Source: a bacterium (GTDB lineage Bacteria > SZUA-182 > DTGQ01 > JAFGSM01). From it: 10,414 bases of DNA. The stretch is from NCBI GenBank assembly GCA_049472355.1, contig JBLIRP010000111.1, positions 1-10,414 on the forward strand. The letters are read 5' to 3'. This document shows, piece after piece, positions 167 to 10,047 of the stretch. Position numbers and translations under genes: made by a program. Positions within the stretch are counted from its first letter, which is position 1. Every line of letters starts with the position of its first letter. The notes under the pieces were generated by a model. It did no database searches. It worked only from the letters and a program-made list of their open reading frames with translations, and was not told the DNA's origin.

Positions 167-746
167 AAATGGCTTTGATAAAATGCCCGGAGTGCAGCAG
201 ACAGGTCTCGGATCGTTCAATGTCGTGCCCGCAATGTGGCCATCTTTTGGGTAAATCAGCCGCCCCCCCCTTAGGCGACCTGCCCCAGGCGATGGCCAGA
301 AAGCCTACACCCAAAACAGGGAAATTGCTGCAGCTTATCGGTATCGTTTTCTTCCTTCTCGGCTTCTCTTTTTGTGGTGTGAGTATGGAAGCGAACAATC
401 CTGATGTGCTAATAACGGCGGAGATTTGGATGGTCTTGTCCTATGTATTGGGTACCATGTTCTTTGCCGGGGGCAGATTCCTTGCAGGGAGAAGTGCGAT
501 GCTTAAAATGGCCTCAGTAAAATGCCCGGAGTGTGGCAGACAGGTTTCGCTGCCTAAGGTACTGGCCAGCAAACCTGCGTCCAGAACAGGGAAAGTACTG
601 CAATACATCGGCCTGGTCCTCTTTTCACTCGGAGTGTCTTCTTGTGTGCTGGCTATTGGCTTTGATCTGCAGGGATCGTTCTGGTCGTCGTCTGTGCAAT
701 TATCAAGTTTCTTCGGCTTCGTGTCCTTTGTCGGCGGCAGATTCCT
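167..746 (+). repeat. Internal tandem duplication (unit 1 about 167-483, unit 2 about 506-746)
   Basis: aaatggctttgataaaatgcccggagtgcagcagacaggtctcg vs aaatggcctcagtaaaatgcccggagtgtggcagacaggtttcg. Both units share aacagggaaa and end in ggcagattcct. Confidence 0.9.
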
Positions 747-768
747 CGAATGGTGGTACACCGAATGA
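169..768 (+). CDS. Zinc-ribbon domain membrane protein built from two tandem modules
   Basis: GAGG RBS upstream of ATG169. N-terminus MALIKCPEC..VSD....CPQCG is a typical zinc-ribbon signature. A second KCPECG follows, and there are four hydrophobic segments. Confidence 0.85.
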   Translation: MALIKCPECSRQVSDRSMSCPQCGHLLGKSAAPPLGDLPQAMARKPTPKTGKLLQLIGIVFFLLGFSFCGVSMEANNPDVLITAEIWMVLSYVLGTMFFAGGRFLAGRSAMLKMASVKCPECGRQVSLPKVLASKPASRTGKVLQYIGLVLFSLGVSSCVLAIGFDLQGSFWSSSVQLSSFFGFVSFVGGRFLEWWYTE

Positions 769-1019: not shown

Positions 1020-1640
1020 TTAAATCCGCCCTTGCTTCTTGAGATCCTTATACCATCTGGGATGGTGGAGGCGCGCCCAGGCTTTCGAGACCCTCCCGGT
1101 AAAGAGCAACTGAATGGACCCTGGTGCCCCGATGGTGGACAGATACACATGGGCCACAAACATGAGCACCACCATCGCCATGGCAAGATCATGGACGATA
1201 TACATCACGCGAACCAGTTCCGGAGGCATTCTGCTCGCCTGCCACATGATGAACCCGGAGACGATAAAGAGGATGCCGCTTGCGATGGTATTGTAAAAGA
1301 AGAGCTTCTGTCCCGCATTGAATTCCCCGGCCTCAGGTGCGCCCTTGAACAGACTCCCCAGATATCCCCCGGCCTTGGTGATCCATTTGAAGTCTCCCTC
1401 CTCCCACCGGCAGGGCTTCCAGAACATCCAGATCAGGAACGGGAGGAATAGGGCAAAGGGTATGGCAAAGACGTGGTGGAGCGTCTTCGTCAGGCTGGAC
1501 CCCTTGAGTATCCCGCTCACAAATGGGAACCTCGGAAGAAACAGGAGGACCCCGGTGACAAGCAGGATGCAAAAACAGATCAAATGGAGCCAGTGGATGA
1601 TGATCTCATGGGGCTTCATCCTCAGAATCTCGTCATTCAT
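1020..1640 (-). CDS. FdnI/PhsC-type di-heme cytochrome b membrane subunit
   Basis: Four TM helices with candidate heme-ligand His (HWLH, LHH, VHD, AHVY). FNAGQK motif and C-terminal GRVSKAWARLHHPRWY match formate dehydrogenase gamma subunits. GAGGTG RBS. Overlaps the upstream gene by 8 nt. Confidence 0.93.
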   Translation of the reverse strand: MNDEILRMKPHEIIIHWLHLICFCILLVTGVLLFLPRFPFVSGILKGSSLTKTLHHVFAIPFALFLPFLIWMFWKPCRWEEGDFKWITKAGGYLGSLFKGAPEAGEFNAGQKLFFYNTIASGILFIVSGFIMWQASRMPPELVRVMYIVHDLAMAMVVLMFVAHVYLSTIGAPGSIQLLFTGRVSKAWARLHHPRWYKDLKKQGRI

Positions 1641-2382
1641 CGGTCTTCACCTCGTATTTCTTCTCCTTTTTGGGCCCGATAATAAAATAGTGGGCCATGG
1701 CAGCCAGGACGGCCCCGATGATCCCGTATGTCCCGATGGGCTGAATAAACTGCTTCCACACGATGACCGACAGCGGTACCTTCGGGTCCCTGTTCAGGCC
1801 GTAGTGCTCCGGTTCCCTTTTGATGGCGTAGAGCACGTGGGTCCCCTGCAGAAAGGATTCCCCGTAGAGCCCCCCTTCCACCCCATTGGAGGAGGCGAGG
1901 ATCTCGCCGCCCTGCGTCTTGAGATCCTCAATGGTGCCGTACCGCAAGGCCCCGGTGATGCAGGTGGACACGCAGGCGGGCTCCTTTCCCTCTGCAGTGC
2001 GGTGCTCACACAGGTTGCACTTGTAGCTCTTGCCCAGGCTGCGATTGAATTGAGGCACCGAAAAGGGGCAACTGATGACGCAATACTGGCACCCTATGCA
2101 TCGCTTCTCATCCAGCACCACGGTACCGTTCGGCCTCCGGGTAATGGCGGACACAGGGCATGCCATCATGCAGGCCGCCTCTGAACAATGCATGCATGCC
2201 TTCCTGACAAAATTCTTCTGCACCGCGGGGAACACACCCTGCTCAAAGGGTTCGACCCGTACGATGAAATGCCCCTCGGGCCAGCCGAACTCCGCCTTGC
2301 ACGCCATGGCGCAGGCGTTGCATCCGACGCACCGTTCTACATCAAAGAGTATCCCGTATGAATCCTTCGCCTCATCTGGCAT
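1633..2382 (-). CDS. FdnH-like 4x[4Fe-4S] electron-transfer subunit with C-terminal membrane anchor (249 aa)
   Basis: Start reassigned to ATG2382 (MPDEAKDSYGILFD), preceded by GGAGG. Motifs CVGCNACAMAC, CMHCSEAACMMAC, CIGCQYCVISC and KCNLC..PACVSTC. C-terminal helix GIIGAVLAAMAHYFIIGP resembles the FdnH anchor. Confidence 0.93.
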   Translation of the reverse strand: MPDEAKDSYGILFDVERCVGCNACAMACKAEFGWPEGHFIVRVEPFEQGVFPAVQKNFVRKACMHCSEAACMMACPVSAITRRPNGTVVLDEKRCIGCQYCVISCPFSVPQFNRSLGKSYKCNLCEHRTAEGKEPACVSTCITGALRYGTIEDLKTQGGEILASSNGVEGGLYGESFLQGTHVLYAIKREPEHYGLNRDPKVPLSVIVWKQFIQPIGTYGIIGAVLAAMAHYFIIGPKKEKKYEVKTDE

Positions 2383-3229
2383 TTTTTTCCTCCACCGCCA
2401 CCACCCTGAAACCGGTAAAGCCGTTGCGGAATGTCGCATCAGCGCCATACCGGTTGGACACCCTGAGCATGTCCGGATAGAAGCACCACGCCCCTCCCCG
2501 GACCACCCTGAGTCTTCCTGAAGAGGGGCCGTTCGGGTCCTTTGCGGGACTCTCCTTATAGTACGTCGCACAGTACCAGTCCTGACACCACTCCCAGAGA
2601 TTTCCCGCCATATTGTAGAGGCCGAAGCCATTTGCAGGGTATGCCCTGGCAGGTGCACAAAAGGCATAACCGTCCGTGATGTTCTGGTCCGCCCAGATAT
2701 CCTTCTCCTTCTCAAACTCAAGGCGATCCGCGAAATTACACTGCGTGCCGTCGGGTTTCCGGTCGCCCCAGGGGAATGATGTGCCCTGCAGTCCGCCCCG
2801 TGCAGCATATTCCCATTCCGCCTCCGTGGGCAGGCGATAGGTTCGGCCCTCCTTTTTGCTCAACCAGGCGCAGAATTCCTGTGCATCCTCCCAGGAGACA
2901 AAACAGACCGGATACTCATCCGCAGGGGAATAGGTCTTTACGTCATTCCACTTATTCCATCGGGTGCGGCTTTCATCATAAAAGGCCTTCCATTGGGCAA
3001 CGGTCACCTCCGTCTCACTGATATGGAACGGGCTCAGGGTCACCTCATGGGCCGGCATCTCGTCCTCCCCTCCCCTGCCGTCTTCCGCGCCCATGACAAA
3101 GCTCCCCCCCTTGATCGGGACCATGTTCATCCCCAGGGAGTTTCGAAATGCCGATGCAGGCGTGGAACAAAGGAGCAGCATGGAAAGGATAACCACCATT
3201 GTGACCCATTGCTTAGAGGGCATTGTCAT
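2372..3229 (-). CDS. Exported FGE-sulfatase (SUMF1/formylglycine-generating enzyme-like) domain protein
   Basis: Motifs GGSFVMG, E.PAHEV, TEVTVAQW, VSWEDAQEFCAWLS, RLPTEAEWEYAARGG, PANGFGLYNMAGNLWEWCQD, VVRGGAW and GFRV. Signal peptide ends ASA. Start is ATG3229 (better RBS spacing) or ATG3235. Confidence 0.92.
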   Translation of the reverse strand: MTMPSKQWVTMVVILSMLLLCSTPASAFRNSLGMNMVPIKGGSFVMGAEDGRGGEDEMPAHEVTLSPFHISETEVTVAQWKAFYDESRTRWNKWNDVKTYSPADEYPVCFVSWEDAQEFCAWLSKKEGRTYRLPTEAEWEYAARGGLQGTSFPWGDRKPDGTQCNFADRLEFEKEKDIWADQNITDGYAFCAPARAYPANGFGLYNMAGNLWEWCQDWYCATYYKESPAKDPNGPSSGRLRVVRGGAWCFYPDMLRVSNRYGADATFRNGFTGFRVVAVEEKNAR

Positions 3230-3345
3230 AGGCATATCCCTTTTAACGTCAGTGCATTAATGAACATCAATATCCCTCCAAAGTTTCAAGGGATTGTATA
3301 ACGCATCGCTTTTTTTGATCTCCTGAGAATGGATTTCGGGAATCA

Positions 3346-4035
3346 TCAATCAATACCTTTTCTTTCACCATCAAAGAAGATCTTGGAAAACAGGCCCGCC
3401 TCCCGGTACAAGGGATGCCGGGTGTGAACATACACCCTATCCGAAAAATCCCAGGCCCAACACAAGAGGTGCTGCTGGAGAAAGCGTATCTGGGCATCCC
3501 GAAACCGCTCCGCCTTTTTGAGCTCCCCGTCAGTGTATGCCGCCAACTCCTTCTCGATAAGGCATGCCATGAATTCCGTTTCAATGGCGATGTGATCGGC
3601 AGGCTCCGGATGATGCTCCCCCAGATCAACGCCGAACTGCCGGTAGAACTCCCTGACCCTTACTGTGGTCTCGCCGATCACCAGATGCCCCTTGTTTACG
3701 TGGACTGATTCATAGGGCTTTGCAGGCGTCCCGTTAAAGGAATTTATAAAGAGCCGGGTATATTCCACCTCAAGGTCCAGCAGCAAATCGGCAATGCCCC
3801 GATGCACCATATCCGCAATGGACTCGAAGGCCTTTTGGGCATCCCTGCCCGCAAGGCCCATCAAATCATGGGACTCGGGTGAAAGGGTAAACGCCTTCAA
3901 GAAATGCACCGTTTCGGGTCCCGGATAACTATAGATGGTATGCAGAAGGCGATATGCAGCACACCGGGCAGTCTCCTGTTTCATCAATTCACCTGAATAG
4001 ACTATTTCCTTTTCCATAGACGAAACCATGTGCAT
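3346..4035 (-). CDS. TorD/DmsD-family molybdoenzyme maturation chaperone
   Basis: EYTRLF, PYESV and EPADHIAIETEFM motifs. TGATG overlap with the catalytic-subunit stop codon. Confidence 0.92.
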   Translation of the reverse strand: MHMVSSMEKEIVYSGELMKQETARCAAYRLLHTIYSYPGPETVHFLKAFTLSPESHDLMGLAGRDAQKAFESIADMVHRGIADLLLDLEVEYTRLFINSFNGTPAKPYESVHVNKGHLVIGETTVRVREFYRQFGVDLGEHHPEPADHIAIETEFMACLIEKELAAYTDGELKKAERFRDAQIRFLQQHLLCWAWDFSDRVYVHTRHPLYREAGLFSKIFFDGERKGID

Positions 4036-6245
4036 CAGACCTTGGAAATCCTGACCAGTATGTCGGAGTCAGCGGCGTTGGCCGAGGGGTCGTTAATTTT
4101 TATCATTTCCTGCAATGGGATATCATTCATGAGGTCACCATCATTGGCGCCATGGTAAGCGGCCCTGGTCAGGAATTTGGACCAGTGGCCATACCCATGG
4201 GGCACGCATACCGTGTCCGGACGTATTCCCTCGGTGAGAAAGGCCTTGAGAACGATCTGCCCGTACATGGATTCCACCCGCACCCTGTGCCCCTGCTTGA
4301 TCCCCAGCTCCCGTGCCTTGGCTGCGTTGATCCACACCATATTCTCAGGGACCATCTCATGGATCCAGGGGATATTCTCTGTGGTGCAATGAAAATTAAG
4401 GGGCGACCGGGTGGTGGTAAAATAGAAGGGATAGTCCTTCGTGGGTGTCAGCACCCACGCCTCCCTGAAAACAGGCAGCGGGTCGTATCCATGCTGATCG
4501 AAAAGCTGGGAATAGACCTCGATCTTGCCCGATACCGTGGGAAGCTTTGTGAGGTCCTGGGGCCGGAACCGCTTCCTGAAGGTCAAAAGCCCCATGCCCT
4601 TCAACTCCTGGTAGGTCATCTCCAGGTATTTCAACTGCTCGTTCAACGCGGCCTCACCGTGCTCCGGCATATACTCGGCGATACCCATGCGCTCTGCGAT
4701 TCCCGCCTTGATTTCATCCAGTTCCCTGGCCTCGTACAGGGGCTCCACCACCGGCTGAAACACGGAGATCTGAGGTGACTTTGCATAGAGGTTCCTCGCG
4801 TTGAGCTCCTTCCGCTCAAGATAGGTCCTATCCGGCAGAACTATGTCGGCAAGGCATGCCATCTCATCCGGATATATATTGATATTCACCACAAACGGGA
4901 CCTTTGCGAATGCCTTGGCCACGCGATTCGGGTTTGAAAAGGCAAACAGGCTCTGTTTGTAAACGATCAATGCCTTCAGGGCATAGGGGTCCTCGTTCAG
5001 GATGCCCTCGGCGATGGTGTGAATCAGTCCGTCCCCGGAAAGGGGATGGGGATTCAGCACAGGGAAATTCTCAGCCCCGTCGATCCTGAGATAGGTGTCC
5101 AGCTCCGGGGGCTCCTTTTTGGGCCGGTTCCTGACCACCCTGGGGGTGCGGGGAAAAAACATGCCTCCCACAACCTCGATGTTTCCGGTGATGGCGCAGA
5201 GGATATTCTCGGCGTGGACCAGGGAAAGGCCTTCCCGTCTCATGACATGAACGCCCCGTTTGTAGTGGGGAAGGCATGCGGGCTTGGTGGTGGCGAATTC
5301 CCGGGCGATCCTTTCGATGGTTTGCGCAGGGACGTCGCTTACGAGGGCAGCCCACTTTGGGGTTTTATCCCTCACCGACTCCGCCAGGCGGTCGAATCCG
5401 TACACGTTTTCTTCAACAAAGGCCTTGTCATAGAGCTCGTTGCGGATGATATAGTGGATCATGGCAAGGGCCACGGCAATGTCCGTGCCGGGACGGATGG
5501 GGATCCATTCCGCAGCCATGGCAGCGGTGGCGGATTGCCTGGGATCGAAGATCACCGCCTTGGCGCCATTCGCAATCCCCTCGGCAAACGGTCCGGCAAA
5601 TACGTTTTTCGCCTTACCGGGCATATCCCAGCCAAATCCGAGGATATACCTGGTTTCACTCAGATCAGGGGCCAGATAGCGCTGCCCGAACACCCCCATA
5701 TTGCCGATAACCCTGGCGCTGTTGCACTTGGTGTGATGGCATAGATCATTGGGACTCCCCAGGGCGCGCAGCAGGTCCTTGCCCACATGATATCCGAGCC
5801 ATGCGATGCTCCGTGCACCGAACTGATCCCTGGCTGTGGTGAGTTCGGCCGCAATGGTATCCAGTGCCTCATCCCAGGAGATACGCTTCCATTTCGGGTC
5901 CACCCCAACACCCTTTTCGGGGTTGGTGCGTTTGAGGGGATATTTCAACCGGTCGGGATCATACAGGAGGCTGATTCCGGCATTCCCCTTGCCGCATAAA
6001 CGGCCACGTCCATGTTGATCATCCGGATTCCCCTCCAGTTTGATCAGCCTTCCGTCCTTCACCGATGCGATCATCGCGCAATGGCTGGCACACATGCCAC
6101 AGGTGGTGTACAGCGTTGCAATTCCGGATGCATCCTGCGAGGAAGATGCCCCTTCCTGAAGGGCTTGTGCAGGCAAGGGGATAAGGCCGAGGGTGCCCGC
6201 CCCTGCGCCCATGATTTGAAGAAATCTTCGCCGTGTCAATTCCAC
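4035..6245 (-). CDS. Tat-exported Mo/W-bisPGD oxidoreductase catalytic subunit, thiosulfate/polysulfide reductase (PhsA/PsrA)-like
   Basis: GTG start with AAGGGGA RBS. Tat motif TRRRFLQ. FS0 motif CGMCASHC...LCGKG. Also YDPDRLKYPLKR, ISWDEALD, IRPGTD, ADIVLP and SGKIE. Putative metal-ligand Cys in HHTKC (compare PhsA/PsrA HxSxC). 736 aa. Confidence 0.93.
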   Translation of the reverse strand: MELTRRRFLQIMGAGAGTLGLIPLPAQALQEGASSSQDASGIATLYTTCGMCASHCAMIASVKDGRLIKLEGNPDDQHGRGRLCGKGNAGISLLYDPDRLKYPLKRTNPEKGVGVDPKWKRISWDEALDTIAAELTTARDQFGARSIAWLGYHVGKDLLRALGSPNDLCHHTKCNSARVIGNMGVFGQRYLAPDLSETRYILGFGWDMPGKAKNVFAGPFAEGIANGAKAVIFDPRQSATAAMAAEWIPIRPGTDIAVALAMIHYIIRNELYDKAFVEENVYGFDRLAESVRDKTPKWAALVSDVPAQTIERIAREFATTKPACLPHYKRGVHVMRREGLSLVHAENILCAITGNIEVVGGMFFPRTPRVVRNRPKKEPPELDTYLRIDGAENFPVLNPHPLSGDGLIHTIAEGILNEDPYALKALIVYKQSLFAFSNPNRVAKAFAKVPFVVNINIYPDEMACLADIVLPDRTYLERKELNARNLYAKSPQISVFQPVVEPLYEARELDEIKAGIAERMGIAEYMPEHGEAALNEQLKYLEMTYQELKGMGLLTFRKRFRPQDLTKLPTVSGKIEVYSQLFDQHGYDPLPVFREAWVLTPTKDYPFYFTTTRSPLNFHCTTENIPWIHEMVPENMVWINAAKARELGIKQGHRVRVESMYGQIVLKAFLTEGIRPDTVCVPHGYGHWSKFLTRAAYHGANDGDLMNDIPLQEMIKINDPSANAADSDILVRISKV

Positions 6246-6303
6246 AATCGTATCCCCTTATCGATCTTCTCCACCGCCCCGGGTGGAGGGCTCATGTGCC
6301 TTA

Positions 6304-6615
6304 TCACCCGGACTCCGCCGCCTCGTTGATAATACCGAGTTTTTTAAGGGTGATTGCCTTTTCAAGCCAATCCCTGGCTTGAGCGGAATCCCTGCTGATG
6401 TCAAGGGCCATGCGGAAATTTTTGACTGCCGTTTCATAGTAGCTGTCGGAAACCGAGAGCTTCCCGCGGGCCATGAAAAGATTGAACCGATACTCAGGCG
6501 TGACCGTTTGATCGGACCGCGCCCGGACGCGTGGAGACGATACGAGAATGAGTGAACACACAATGGAAATAACAAGGACGAGCCTGATCGTGTTGAGCCT
6601 ATTGTTTCGTGTCAT
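6304..6615 (-). CDS. Small exported TPR-like helical protein
   Basis: Basic N-region, hydrophobic core and VRA cleavage-like site. ARGK....YYETAVKNFRMALDISRDSAQARDWL fits a TPR pattern. Start uncertain (6615, 6639 or 6645). Confidence 0.7.
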   Translation of the reverse strand: MTRNNRLNTIRLVLVISIVCSLILVSSPRVRARSDQTVTPEYRFNLFMARGKLSVSDSYYETAVKNFRMALDISRDSAQARDWLEKAITLKKLGIINEAAESG

Positions 6616-6695
6616 CGAATTTACCTGATCGAGCGTCATCGTCAATGATTCGGATGGTTACCCTGACCGGAACATGTCACGGATGACTATGTGTC

Positions 6696-6751
6696 AAAAA
6701 AATTCATCAGGGGGACCGCAGGGGTGCAACATCCCGGACAGCCCCCCTGAT
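6696..6751 (-). terminator. Probable intrinsic terminator/attenuator after the rhodanese gene
   Basis: Perfect 9-bp arms ATCAGGGGG (6706-6714) / CCCCCTGAT (6743-6751) with an inner GGGATG/CACCCC stem. Followed on the minus strand by GAA and a T7 run. Confidence 0.6.
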
Positions 6752-6766
6752 TCATCATAATCGTTG

Positions 6767-7342
6767 TTACGGCCTGTCCGGGGAATAGATATACTGGGGA
6801 TCAAGATCCTGAACCTTCATCATATAATCCACGGGAAGTCTTTCCGCCTTCCAACCATTCTCCTCTTCCAGTCCGCCTAGAATATTGATCACGTCCTTAT
6901 ACCCGGCCTTGACCATCTCATCCGCTGCCTTTGCGCTCCTGCTTGAGGTGCCGCAATAAACGATGATGGTTTCATCGGGCTTTGCCAATTCTTTGACATA
7001 TTTCATGAAGTCCTGATTTTTCACGAACTGGTATCTGTTCATGGGCGCCTTCATCATCTCACCCGGGGCATACTCAAACTCCTGACCCTTCAACATGAAT
7101 TTCTCGGTCATGAACCAGTAGGGTATGTTATAGGCCCCCTTGATGTAACCCTGAAACTGGAATTCGGTCGGGGTCCTGACATCGATCACCTTTATTTTGG
7201 GGTCCTTCGCAAGCATCTCGGAGACCTCTTGAGCGCTCATATTTTCAGCAAGCTTCGCACTTGCCGCCCACACGACATCCATTGAGAAAGCTATGAGCAT
7301 TATAACCACTGCCACAATCATCCATCGTCTTAAAGACCTCAT
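6767..7342 (-). CDS. Exported single-domain rhodanese (sulfurtransferase)
   Basis: AGGAGG RBS and a signal peptide ending VWA. IDVRTPTEF...GYIKGAYNIP, active-site loop YCGTSSRS, and NILGG...W....LP. Confidence 0.93.
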   Translation of the reverse strand: MRSLRRWMIVAVVIMLIAFSMDVVWAASAKLAENMSAQEVSEMLAKDPKIKVIDVRTPTEFQFQGYIKGAYNIPYWFMTEKFMLKGQEFEYAPGEMMKAPMNRYQFVKNQDFMKYVKELAKPDETIIVYCGTSSRSAKAADEMVKAGYKDVINILGGLEEENGWKAERLPVDYMMKVQDLDPQYIYSPDRP

Positions 7343-7523: not shown

Positions 7524-7552
7524 ATACTAATATAATCTTACATCCCTGTCAA
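7524..7552 (-). promoter_or_regulatory. Sigma70 promoter for the rhodanese/molybdoenzyme cluster
   Basis: Minus strand TTGACA (7552-7547), 17 nt spacer, TAGTAT (7529-7524), in AT-rich DNA about 180 nt upstream of the start codon. Confidence 0.65.
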
Positions 7553-7714: not shown

Positions 7715-7918
7715 ATGCGCACAAATATCGTCCTGGATGAAAAACTTGTTCAAACGGCATTCAAATACGCACATGTAAAAACCAAGAAGGATCTGATTAC
7801 CTTGGCCTTGAAGGAATTCGTGGAAAACCACAGCCGATTGGATCTCCGTGATTTGCAAGGAGAGATTGAATTCAGCAAGGATTATGATCATAAAAAGCTG
7901 CGACAAGGAAAAATGTAA
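7715..7918 (+). CDS. vapB: Type II antitoxin, VapB family
   Basis: MRTNIVLDEKLV..A......TKKDLI..ALKEFV signature. GGAGG RBS. TAATG overlap with the PIN gene. Confidence 0.9.
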   Translation: MRTNIVLDEKLVQTAFKYAHVKTKKDLITLALKEFVENHSRLDLRDLQGEIEFSKDYDHKKLRQGKM

Positions 7919-8316
7919 TGGTCTTGGTTGATACATCTATTTTTATCGATTTCTTTAAAAAAATTAGAAACAAGGGCGTTGAAAAATTCAGTGACATCCT
8001 GTCCAGAAATATCCCTTATGGAATAAATACCTATATCTATCAAGAACTATTACAGGGAACTGCGTCAGAAAGGGACTATACATTATTAAAAAGGTACCTG
8101 GATACGCAAGTATTTTATGAATTACACAACGGAAGGGAATCATTTGCCGAGGCCGCCATGATATATTTTAAATGCAGGAGGGCGGGTTTTACCATACGCA
8201 GCACCATAGACTGTTTGATCGTACAGACCGCGGTGGAAAACAATGTGGCATTGCTGCACAACGATTCTGACTTCGATCGCATACAAGGGATCATCAATGG
8301 ATTGACGATCTATTAA
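7918..8316 (+). CDS. vapC: PIN-domain toxin VapC
   Basis: LVDTS, QELLQG, STIDCLI and LLHNDSDFDRI; the acidic catalytic residues are intact. Confidence 0.93.
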   Translation: MVLVDTSIFIDFFKKIRNKGVEKFSDILSRNIPYGINTYIYQELLQGTASERDYTLLKRYLDTQVFYELHNGRESFAEAAMIYFKCRRAGFTIRSTIDCLIVQTAVENNVALLHNDSDFDRIQGIINGLTIY

Positions 8317-8874
8317 TTAACCGATTACCAGTCTTTCCCCGAGAACGCGTGCCTGCGCAAGGCTCGCCGGCTTCTTCAGGACGTCGCCCTTACCACCTAC
8401 CCCCGGCACCAGGACCTTGCCTACGAGATCCATCTCCAGATACGCAAGGCTCTTCTCAAAGAATACCACCACAGGCCCTGCCATCTCCGCACCCTCCTCT
8501 TCATACGGAACGGCTATGGCTGCACGCGTGCCCCGTATCCCGGCGTGATTTTCAGGACAGTTGAAGTACACGAACCGGTCAACAAATCCCTTCATCAATG
8601 CCGTTGGCCCATACCAGTAAACCGGCGTCCCGAAAACAAGTGCATCAGCCTCGATGATCCTCGGGTAGAGCGTATTCATGTCGTCCTGTTTGCTGCACCC
8701 CTTCCCCCTCCAGCAGGCATGACACCCGTCACACTCCTTGATCTCGAGGTCATCGAGGAAAAGGACCTCCGTCGCGGCCCCATGCGCTGCCGCACCTTCC
8801 AGAATCGTGGAAACCAGGATATGGGTGTTTCCGTTCCTGCGCGGACTCCCCACAACCCCGAGTATCTTCCTCAT
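8317..8874 (-). CDS. Iron-sulfur flavoprotein (Isf-like flavodoxin / NADPH-dependent FMN reductase family)
   Basis: GSPRRNGNT FMN loop, compact CDGCHACWRGKGC [4Fe-4S] motif, GTPVYW and MKGFVDR. Start probably ATG8874 after GAGGA; alternatives are 8889 and 8895. Confidence 0.92.
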   Translation of the reverse strand: MRKILGVVGSPRRNGNTHILVSTILEGAAAHGAATEVLFLDDLEIKECDGCHACWRGKGCSKQDDMNTLYPRIIEADALVFGTPVYWYGPTALMKGFVDRFVYFNCPENHAGIRGTRAAIAVPYEEEGAEMAGPVVVFFEKSLAYLEMDLVGKVLVPGVGGKGDVLKKPASLAQARVLGERLVIG

Positions 8875-9051
8875 CCGATCCTCAGACATGTTCACATTGC
8901 CCCATCATGTAAGCATGAGTACCATTCGCAGCAACCCCATCGCCTGCAATTCTGAGAGCCTGGGACACCTTCCTGCATCAGTGACCATAGCAGGGAACAT
9001 GAGTAAGGAACATGCCGTAAGACGAGCGCATACCGTTTTTTCAAGCCCTTA

Positions 9052-10047
9052 TCACTCCATTGTGAGTATGTGTAGGCCCTTGTCTCCGTCCGCCACATAG
9101 ACGTATTTATCATCAGCGGCGATCCCCCTGGCGGTCCCCGGGGTATCGAATCCGGCAATGAATCGCGGCGATGCCGGGCTGCTTATATCGAGCACCTGCA
9201 CCCCTGCCTCGCAATCGGCTACAAAGGCACGATCCCCCATGATCGCAACCTCGCAGCTATTTCCCGGCGTATCATATGCACCGATAATTGCAGGGTTCTT
9301 CACATCATGAATGTCCACCACCTGCACGCCCGAGTCCCATGAGGCAATGTAGGCATATTCACCCTTTAAGGCAACCTTGTGTGGTCGCCCCGGTATCTTC
9401 AGCAGTCCCATCGGCCACGGGACCTCAGGTTTCTTTACATCCACGATCTGGAGGCCCTTATCCTTATCCGCAAGATACAGAAGGTCCCCGTGCAAGGAGA
9501 TCCCACAGGTGTCACCAGGTGTTTCACATTCACCGACAAAGACGGGTGCCGCCGTATCCTTGACATCTATGATCTGCAGTCCCTTTTCGCTGTCCGCAAT
9601 GTACGCATAATCATTCCGAAAGGCCACCCCGCATGCATAGCCGCCGGTTTTATGCTGCGTGATACCCTGTGGTGCCGAGGGGTTGGTCACATCCACGATC
9701 TGAATCCCCGCGCGGCAATCGGCTATGACCGCCGTATTCCCGGAAACGACCACGTCACAGGCGTACCCCGGGGTGTCATACGTGCCGGCAAGGCGAGGCA
9801 ATGTGGGAGTCGAAACGTCGATAATCTGGAGCCCGCCATCACCATCCCCCACATAGGCATACGAGCCCATGATGGTTACCGAGCGGGCGTCTCCAGGGGT
9901 ATCGTACCCCCCTACCCTGCGCAGTACGGCCGTTTTTTCACCTGAGGTTGATTCAGCCCGACATGCATAATGGAAGGAAACATACGAATAACATACGACG
10001 ACCACAACTGGAAAAACGACAACTGACAAAGAGATTCTTCGTAACAT
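9052..10047 (-). CDS. Exported/anchored LVIVD-repeat 7-bladed beta-propeller protein
   Basis: AGGGG RBS and an N-terminal hydrophobic segment. Seven 42-aa repeats of the type GxYDTPGxAxxVxxxGxYAYxADxxxGLQIIDVxxPxxP. Confidence 0.92.
   Translation of the reverse strand: MLRRISLSVVVFPVVVVVCYSYVSFHYACRAESTSGEKTAVLRRVGGYDTPGDARSVTIMGSYAYVGDGDGGLQIIDVSTPTLPRLAGTYDTPGYACDVVVSGNTAVIADCRAGIQIVDVTNPSAPQGITQHKTGGYACGVAFRNDYAYIADSEKGLQIIDVKDTAAPVFVGECETPGDTCGISLHGDLLYLADKDKGLQIVDVKKPEVPWPMGLLKIPGRPHKVALKGEYAYIASWDSGVQVVDIHDVKNPAIIGAYDTPGNSCEVAIMGDRAFVADCEAGVQVLDISSPASPRFIAGFDTPGTARGIAADDKYVYVADGDKGLHILTME

Follow-up and report, generated by a model that had tools for sequence, protein, structure and literature searches.

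A lineage-conserved seven-gene molybdoenzyme operon with a formate dehydrogenase-type membrane module in the bacterial phylum SZUA-182

The window analysed here is the whole 10,414-nt contig JBLIRP010000111.1. The contig belongs to a genome of 3.49 Mb and 87.5% completeness (GCA_049472355.1) from the bacterial phylum SZUA-182. Its minus strand carries seven co-oriented open reading frames (ORFs) spanning positions 7342 to 1020, which encode, in order, a rhodanese, a small tetratricopeptide repeat (TPR)-like protein, a catalytic molybdenum/tungsten subunit (A), a TorD-type chaperone, a protein with the fold of formylglycine-generating enzymes (FGE), an iron-sulfur subunit (B) and a cytochrome b (C). 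We conclude that this is a real, lineage-conserved operon, assembled from known parts, with an enzyme from an apparently uncharacterised clade at its centre. A first-pass annotation of the DNA had claimed that the gene combination matches no named operon, and indeed neither such a match nor a description of the operon was found in the literature searched, which lay mostly outside subscription journals. The reading that we favour, at about even odds (0.5), is a menaquinone-linked polysulfide/thiosulfate reductase driven by the proton-motive force and fed by the rhodanese. It is based on the best matches of A to PsrA and PhsA, an invariant rhodanese cysteine, sulfur-carrier genes near relatives of A, the anchor type, formate dehydrogenase N (Fdh-N) and hydrogenase in the host, and MenD in the host family.

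The seven co-oriented genes and three overlaps reported previously are borne out by the ORF coordinates (A/TorD 1 nt, FGE-fold/B 11 nt, B/C 8 nt); the remaining gaps are 151 nt (rhodanese to TPR-like), 58 nt (TPR-like to A) and 110 nt (TorD to FGE-fold). All seven genes occur in the same order in three of 41 related loci, where A is 89, 74 and 70% identical, and one further locus, with an A of 99% identity, ends inside TorD and keeps the order in part. This recurrence indicates that the arrangement is not due to chance. Eight of 20 genomes of the host phylum match A at E<=1e-60, and an A ortholog is present in five of them (three families, one order); four of these five are the genomes of loci L001-L004 and are counted once. 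Table S1 of PMC9040765 assigns L002 to phylum SZUA-182. Profile models of the rhodanese and the TPR-like protein matched the same five genomes, and the FGE model exceeded 500 bits in four (in the fifth the contig ends early), the best score elsewhere being 196 bits. Because four of these five genomes had served as the source of the models, the informative result is the absence in the remaining 15, several of them incomplete. Conservation is supported independently by one of 80 loci, the metagenome fragment L142, in which a TPR gene directly precedes an A of 76% identity.

In a profile search of all ORFs in L001-L168, L170 and L187-L193, TPR and FGE orthologs were found only at the operon loci and L142; L169 and L171 were judged from ORF lists, and the flanking sequence was long enough in both directions to reveal these genes in 19 of 43 other clade loci. 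No clade member of 51% identity or less with a visible neighbourhood carries the rhodanese-TPR-FGE trio. Thus close homologues without the accessory genes were not found at 70% identity or more, whereas all those seen at 51% or less lack them, and the trio is an addition specific to this lineage that does not characterise the family.

Subunit A is assigned to the Cys-ligated chalcogen/arsenic branch of the dimethyl sulfoxide reductase (MopB) superfamily by its Mo-bis-pyranopterin guanine dinucleotide domains, FS0 cluster (C49, C52, C56 and C84), twin-arginine translocation (Tat) signal and Cys ligand. The predicted Mo/W ligand, Cys174, aligns with the cysteines of PsrA and ArrA and is conserved in all 109 homologues, as are His170 and Lys329; Trp206 and Asp207 are kept in 106 each, Lys211 in 104 and Lys213 in 107, and the clade motifs are HxxxC, WDxxGKxKN and [H/Y]KR. 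Thermus PsrA was the best match of A (phmmer E 2e-96), followed by ArrA, and the AlphaFold model (predicted local distance difference test score 93) retrieved 2vpw_A at Foldseek rank 1 (template modelling score, TM-score, 0.86; root-mean-square deviation 2.6). Of four PF00384 matches in the genome, A alone is Psr-like.

The first-pass annotation had taken A for a PhsA/PsrA-type enzyme; our results move it into a neighbouring clade. With the PhsA hidden Markov model (HMM) NF012032 it scored 455 bits, below a cut-off of 694 that is narrow, since canonical Psr-like proteins also score 429-629. A separate clade containing A was recovered with support of 1.0 (FastTree, 144 sequences), 100 (IQ-TREE quick, 52) and 87/99 (IQ-TREE LG+G4, 21), and the approximately unbiased (AU) test rejected a grouping of A with PhsA (p about 1e-55). 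The clade was sister to the canonical Psr/Phs group in FastTree (0.98), a relation without resolution in both IQ-TREE runs, and A fell outside the group whose motifs match 2vpw_A, the canonical group being unresolved in the 21-sequence tree. By sequence, therefore, A appears to belong to a separate, well-supported and apparently uncharacterised clade beside PhsA and PsrA; the trees did not include SrrA, Wolinella and Thermus PsrA, AnrA, TtrA and SreA, which limits the claim that it holds no characterised member.

ArrA is the second-best structure match of A (TM-score 0.86) and shares the histidine at -4 from the ligand Cys, and the AU test did not reject A with ArrA (p=0.08). These points would suit an arsenate or antimonate reductase, as would the other branch of the clade, in which most members have Arg at the position of ArrA R165 (56 of 109 overall) and one locus (L099) adjoins ArsP. 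However, the position of the arsenate-binding Gly-Arg motif of ArrA (R165; PMC12949373, cited here and below from the part available) reads Gly151-Tyr152-His153 in A, and the window's branch has no Arg there among the members displayed. The ArrA HMM gave A 269 vs 974-1176 for 23 full-length ArrA-like proteins, none of the three trees placed A with ArrA, no ars genes were seen by eye beside the operon in L001-L004, and the FdnI-type anchor described below would waste energy on arsenate. An arsenate or antimonate function is thus very improbable.

The clade spans Bacillota, Deltaproteobacteria, Chloroflexota, Thermoproteota and SZUA-182. The branch of the window includes Bacillota, among them Thermosyntropha lipolytica (P0028, 44% identical to A), and some Thermoproteota; of the T. 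lipolytica protein, the available part of Wells et al. 2020 (PMC7331816) says only that among bacterial homologues it branches deepest, close to archaeal PsrA/PhsA/SrrA sequences. The nearest sisters among the sequences placed in the trees are P0007-P0012, at 49-54% identity. Among the context-bearing bacterial loci of this subclade outside the host phylum, seven of ten carry a sulfur-carrier gene next to A or within a few genes of it: YeeE in L090 (with TusA) and L190-L193, and tandem rhodanese proteins in L188 and L189. Within Syntrophomonadia, 8 of 125 genomes have a clade member, and six of seven widened loci have a YeeE or tandem-rhodanese gene close by; L090, with such a gene, and L009 and L171, without one, make up the ten. 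Loci of the other branch lie beside ArsP (L099) or near a YedE selenium transporter above cut-off (L013). Membrane anchors also vary in the clade: NrfD was found in L009, L012, L018, L020, L090, L155 and L188, other cytochrome b anchors in L093 and L169, and no anchor gene nearby in L006-L011 (L009 being also listed with NrfD).

Several loci of relatives showed further arrangements. L169 (2161-7950), in a genome of the host's family, encodes a second enzyme, of the other branch and 40% identical, with an FdnH/FdnI-like anchor followed by a probable outer-membrane barrel gene. An anchor-less A-TorD-B set in L006, L007 and L010 stands beside a two-component system with a phosphonate-binding protein and UGSC-family genes (Pfam-checked in L006). 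Arg-branch members in L099, L101, L110, L111 and L119 consist of A and TorD only, near ArsR-like, ArsP and SBF/Acr3-like genes (Pfam scan for L099 and L101 only), and are possible arsenic enzymes. Behind a canonical Psr-like enzyme, L157 (9943-11298) encodes a fusion of a cytochrome b anchor with a sulfur-transport domain of YeeE type, and multihaem c-type cytochrome genes precede clade members in L032 (6020-10826; enzyme of 944 aa) and L171 (3825-4487). In the archaeal members in L018 (8001-10547) and L020 (4121-6694), which are about 850 aa long, the ligand Cys is immediately followed by His (TTCH), as is the ligand residue in formate dehydrogenases. With L020 as query, no named Pyrobaculum or Acidianus protein appeared among the best 120 matches, and the one named crenarchaeal match, Pyrofollis P0209, fell on the canonical side in the 52-sequence tree and outside A's clade in the 21-sequence tree. 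Neither P0209 nor the L020 search, which involved no direct comparison, supports a place for characterised archaeal thiosulfate/sulfur reductases in A's clade.

The best mechanistic clue is the membrane module. B, with 16 cysteines for four 4Fe-4S clusters, carries a Form-deh_trans helix at its C-terminus and scored 171 with TIGR01582 (below cut-off 335). C has four transmembrane helices and scored 147 bits with TIGR01583 (above cut-off 115.85); with the PhsC HMM NF011582 it reached 17.8 bits (cut-off 204), and it is 22% identical to PhsC. His16, His55, His150, His164 and Asn108 of C align with His18, His57, His155, His169 and Asn110 of Escherichia coli FdnI, residues with haem and quinone roles in that protein. 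The Form-deh_trans helix, the TIGR01583 score and the four haem histidines are features of an Fdh-N module, the best PDB matches of B and C are E. coli FdnH and FdnI (1kqf_B and 1kqf_C), and both subunits group with the host's own FdnH/FdnI (FastTree 0.995 and 0.896; 10 sequences each). B and C of L003 are 50% and 48% identical to the host FdnH and FdnI, against 36% and 32% for the window copies, which suggests more than one anchor recruitment.

Only low-potential couples make an FdnI-type anchor worthwhile, so the predicted FdnH/FdnI-type module argues against selenite or arsenate. Of the substrates proposed in the first-pass annotation (sulfur, selenium or organosulfur), sulfur stands as the best guess, and selenite loses ground on account of the anchor. 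A respiratory selenite (or tellurite) reductase like Srr is in our view unlikely. The srr operon also contains rhodanese-domain and chaperone genes (PMC12481199, likewise available in part, and PMC12949373), and L013 of the other subclade lies near its YedE gene; yet an anchor consuming proton-motive force would waste energy on a higher-potential acceptor, and the 38 and 45 kDa accessory proteins and 43 kDa anchor of Srr (PMC12481199) are unlike the 191-aa rhodanese and 206-aa cytochrome b found here.

Signal peptides had been claimed for the three accessory proteins and a Tat signal for A, and both claims agree with N-terminal hydrophobic stretches (hydropathy), taken by eye as Sec signals, and with the motif TRRRFL at the N-terminus of A. 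The rhodanese has Cys130 in the loop CGTSSR; the loop consensus is CG[T/S]SxRS and the Cys is invariant in four of four orthologs, so that this predicted sulfurtransferase keeps its catalytic Cys. It also has a conserved beta-strand insertion (about residues 76-108) and counts Wolinella Sud among its top sequence and structure matches. Only 16 matches at E<=1e-30 were obtained among 1.84 billion cluster representatives, about half of them multi-repeat. A stand-alone rhodanese paralog in L173 (2026-2697, minus strand) has its catalytic Cys replaced (YGRDS), and P0375 has the same change.

The small protein had been called a TPR protein. One TPR-like repeat plus a tail upholds this (TPR feature score 0.96 in ESM Atlas), but no Pfam or NCBIfam model matched; a C-terminal KKLGxxxExxxxG is conserved. 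For the FGE-like protein the fold is confirmed and a catalytic FGE is not: three residues are missing from the RGGS..C....C loop, as is the second Cys of the pair that is catalytic in formylglycine-generating enzymes, and the remaining Cys251 is replaced in two of the first 15 alignment rows. A small operon-type group is marked by an EKxKDxWA segment and Cys166/Cys193. A link of rhodanese and FGE fold to ergothioneine was considered and rejected, as EgtB models matched the 287-aa protein only C-terminally and far below cut-off. FGE matches near clade members in L106 and L146 were also discarded, being 780-aa proteins on the opposite strand (an FGE-lyase fusion in L106).

These proteins bear on a doubtful alternative, in which the operon encodes an oxidoreductase whose substrate, an organosulfur compound or another small molecule so far unrecognised, is bound or pre-processed by the FGE-fold protein. 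The FGE-fold gene lies inside the core and overlaps B, its orthologs above 500 bits occur only at the operon, and in all loci that allow both to be seen, Lys173 and Tyr152 of A accompany the trio. On the other hand, the catalytic cysteine pair is missing, and FGE-fold proteins are so common (matched at E<=1e-40 in 12 of the 20 phylum genomes) that recruitment of a generic periplasmic protein would be easy.

For the polysulfide/thiosulfate reductase that we favour, the following mechanism may be envisaged. TorD would mature A in the cytoplasm, and A would carry B out through Tat. Menaquinol would be oxidised at a cytoplasm-side site of C, and the electrons would reach the Mo centre by way of two haems and four Fe-S clusters; cleavage of an S-S bond there would release HS-. 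The exported rhodanese would likely deliver sulfane sulfur to A. With an FdnI-type anchor, quinone electrons would be exchanged on the cytoplasmic side, so each electron would cross the membrane, and S0 reduction, uphill by about 150-200 mV, would be paid for by the membrane potential. The TPR-like and FGE-fold proteins would most likely be non-catalytic periplasmic helpers in assembly or substrate binding, which is the weakest step. Salmonella Phs is likewise said to reduce thiosulfate at the cost of the proton-motive force.

The host genome encodes a TGA-interrupted, probably selenocysteine-containing Fdh-N and a cytochrome b-linked NiFe hydrogenase, which may refill the quinol pool and would make the operon mainly an electron sink; Sat and what reads as CODH/ACS and Hdr-Flx are also present. 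MenD was above cut-off in six of 20 phylum genomes, including all five others of the host family, and MqnA/D in 11 of 20. The two menaquinone routes appear mutually exclusive in the phylum, with MenD in families f1 and f3 and MqnA/D in most others.

The same chemistry could run in reverse, in which case the enzyme would be an electrogenic sulfide dehydrogenase: periplasmic HS- would be oxidised, sulfane sulfur would pass to the rhodanese, and electrons would reach cytoplasm-side menaquinone, as in Fdh-N with formate, and then multihaem cytochrome chains. The reported potentials of menaquinone (-125/-70 mV), S0/HS- (-275 mV) and thiosulfate (-402 mV; PMC12949373, section 4.3) make the step from HS- to menaquinone downhill by about 150-200 mV. 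The gap between these two couples is about one membrane potential, so that the enzyme would work near equilibrium and reversibly. The grouping of B and C with the host FdnH/FdnI suggests repeated recruitment of a dehydrogenase anchor, and the genome has 32 ORFs with at least three CxxCH motifs, up to 60, and no DsrA. Yet Phs, the characterised precedent for a dihaem anchor, reportedly works as a reductase, the relatives in Syntrophomonadia have NrfD/PsrC-type anchors, and the terminal acceptor for such a chain is putative only. We therefore regard the sulfide dehydrogenase as clearly less probable than a reductase. In its boldest form, to which we give no more weight, a deep Psr-related branch would have taken over a formate dehydrogenase anchor to become an energy-conserving periplasmic enzyme with the rhodanese, TPR-like and FGE-fold proteins as new subunits. 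Very large multihaem cytochromes were seen on contigs C92, C67, C136 and C80, with up to 60 and 49 CxxCH motifs.

Several observations weigh against the polysulfide/thiosulfate reductase reading. The direction of electron flow is not fixed by the sequence, A is only 31% identical to Salmonella PhsA, the AU test leaves room for ArrA, and no clade member with tested activity was found in the literature searched. Lys173 and Tyr152, near the active site of the operon-type A, each occur in only 6 of 109 homologues, and the substrate may therefore differ. No sulfur-carrier neighbour was found at L009, L171 and L187. YeeE is present in 17 of 20 phylum genomes, the host genome not among them, and in this 87.5% complete assembly neither MenD, MqnA/D nor MqnC was matched. 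Moreover, dsrA was above cut-off in none of the 20 phylum genomes and an asrA-like gene of the host lies within what reads as an HdrABC-Flx cluster (contig C83, 64811-71820), so that sulfite from thiosulfate would not be obviously respirable. Since a sulfite sink is missing, polysulfide is favoured over thiosulfate. A published 'asrABC' call beside hdr genes for the genome of L002 may be another such case.

Among known systems, the operon works most like Phs or Psr with Sud, and is a member of neither. Salmonella PhsABC shares a Tat-exported Cys-ligated Mo enzyme with His at -4 from the ligand, a four-cluster B and a dihaem cytochrome b anchor, but A lies outside the PhsA clade, B has a C-terminal membrane helix, C is a four-helix FdnI type, and TorD and three exported accessory genes are added in the window. 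PsrABC with Sud (Thermus, Wolinella) resembles it in the structure 2vpw_A and in a periplasmic single-domain rhodanese, which in Wolinella is said to be a partner in polysulfide reduction; the loops WDxxGKxKN and YKR of A nevertheless replace HHIGEDTHN and TRH of 2vpw. The Phs anchor is a PhsC with five transmembrane helices and PsrC is a haem-free anchor with eight (PMC12949373), whereas C has dihaem ligands, four helices and a PF01292/TIGR01583 assignment. In SrrABCDEF of Bacillus selenitireducens, too, the operon joins genes for a chaperone and a rhodanese to that of a Psr-like A, but the number and sizes of accessory proteins and the anchor size differ, and the available part of PMC12481199 reports no TPR or FGE-fold gene. 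FdnGHI shares the type of B and C, while A is unrelated to FdnG beyond the superfamily fold. The T. lipolytica locus, in the same subclade, has A-TorD-B-NrfD with a tandem-rhodanese protein downstream, and no TPR or FGE-fold gene. By the published definitions, as given in the accessible part of PMC12949373, the window system is neither Psr, Phs nor Srr.

The features of the operon are listed in Table 1. GC content at third codon positions of its genes is 0.62-0.76 against 0.67 +/- 0.10 for the genome, and hence does not point to recent transfer. Scanning for promoters and terminators yielded no more than shuffles did: five promoter-type sites were found vs 5.5 expected, and only the position of the listed candidate is suggestive. 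The hairpin-bearing spacer is missing from L002, and alignment of the upstream DNA of five loci revealed no convincing common regulatory motif.

Table 1. Operon genes and candidate sequence elements in the window
Feature	Position	Strand	Remarks
Rhodanese, exported, single-domain	7342-6767	-	191 aa; Pfam Rhodanese
TPR-like small exported protein	6615-6304	-	103 aa from ATG; 113 aa from TTG at 6645
Catalytic subunit A, Mo/W enzyme	6245-4035	-	736 aa, GTG start; Pfam Molybdopterin
TorD/DmsD-type chaperone	4035-3346	-	Pfam Nitrate_red_del
FGE-fold (SUMF1/PvdO-like) exported protein	3235-2372	-	287 aa; Pfam FGE-sulfatase
FdnH-type Fe-S subunit B	2382-1633	-	249 aa; Pfam Fer4 and Form-deh_trans
FdnI-type cytochrome b, subunit C	1640-1020	-	206 aa; Pfam Ni_hydr_CYTB (PF01292)
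Sigma70-like promoter candidate, TTGACA-17-TAGTAT	7524-7552	-	about 180 nt upstream of rhodanese start
GC-rich hairpin, rhodanese/TPR-like spacer	6707-6751	-	-32.6 kcal/mol for 66-nt region, without shuffle control; no T-tract

Around the operon, a VapB/VapC toxin-antitoxin pair (7715-8316, plus strand) lies in an AT-rich stretch directly upstream. It is followed by genes for a flavodoxin-like FMN reductase (8317-8895, minus strand) and an LVIVD-repeat protein (9052-10047, minus strand), which adjoin the operon only in the window and its 99% relative; LVIVD paralogs occur on seven other contigs of the genome. Downstream, a short non-coding element (about 846-964) has partial copies of 83-93% identity on contigs C3, C56, C144, C93 and C1, and a membrane protein with two zinc-ribbon plus helix-pair repeats is encoded at 169-768 (plus strand).

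Databases label this clade 'thiosulfate/polysulfide reductase', although no tested member was found. In the available part of a published sulfur-gene table (PMC9040765, Table S2), phsABC and psrABC are blank for the genome of L002, which indicates that such screens can miss these enzymes. One branch of the clade lies by sulfur-carrier genes and the other, with an arsenate-type arginine, sometimes by arsenic or selenium genes; the cultured Thermosyntropha makes the clade experimentally accessible. The operon provides a first approach to the phylum's energy metabolism, shows an FGE-fold protein encoded among respiratory genes in one operon, and offers a compact test of how the choice of anchor sets direction and energy yield. 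If the enzyme ran as a sulfide dehydrogenase, it would mean a Dsr-, Sox- and Sqr-independent life on sulfide with multihaem-cytochrome respiration.

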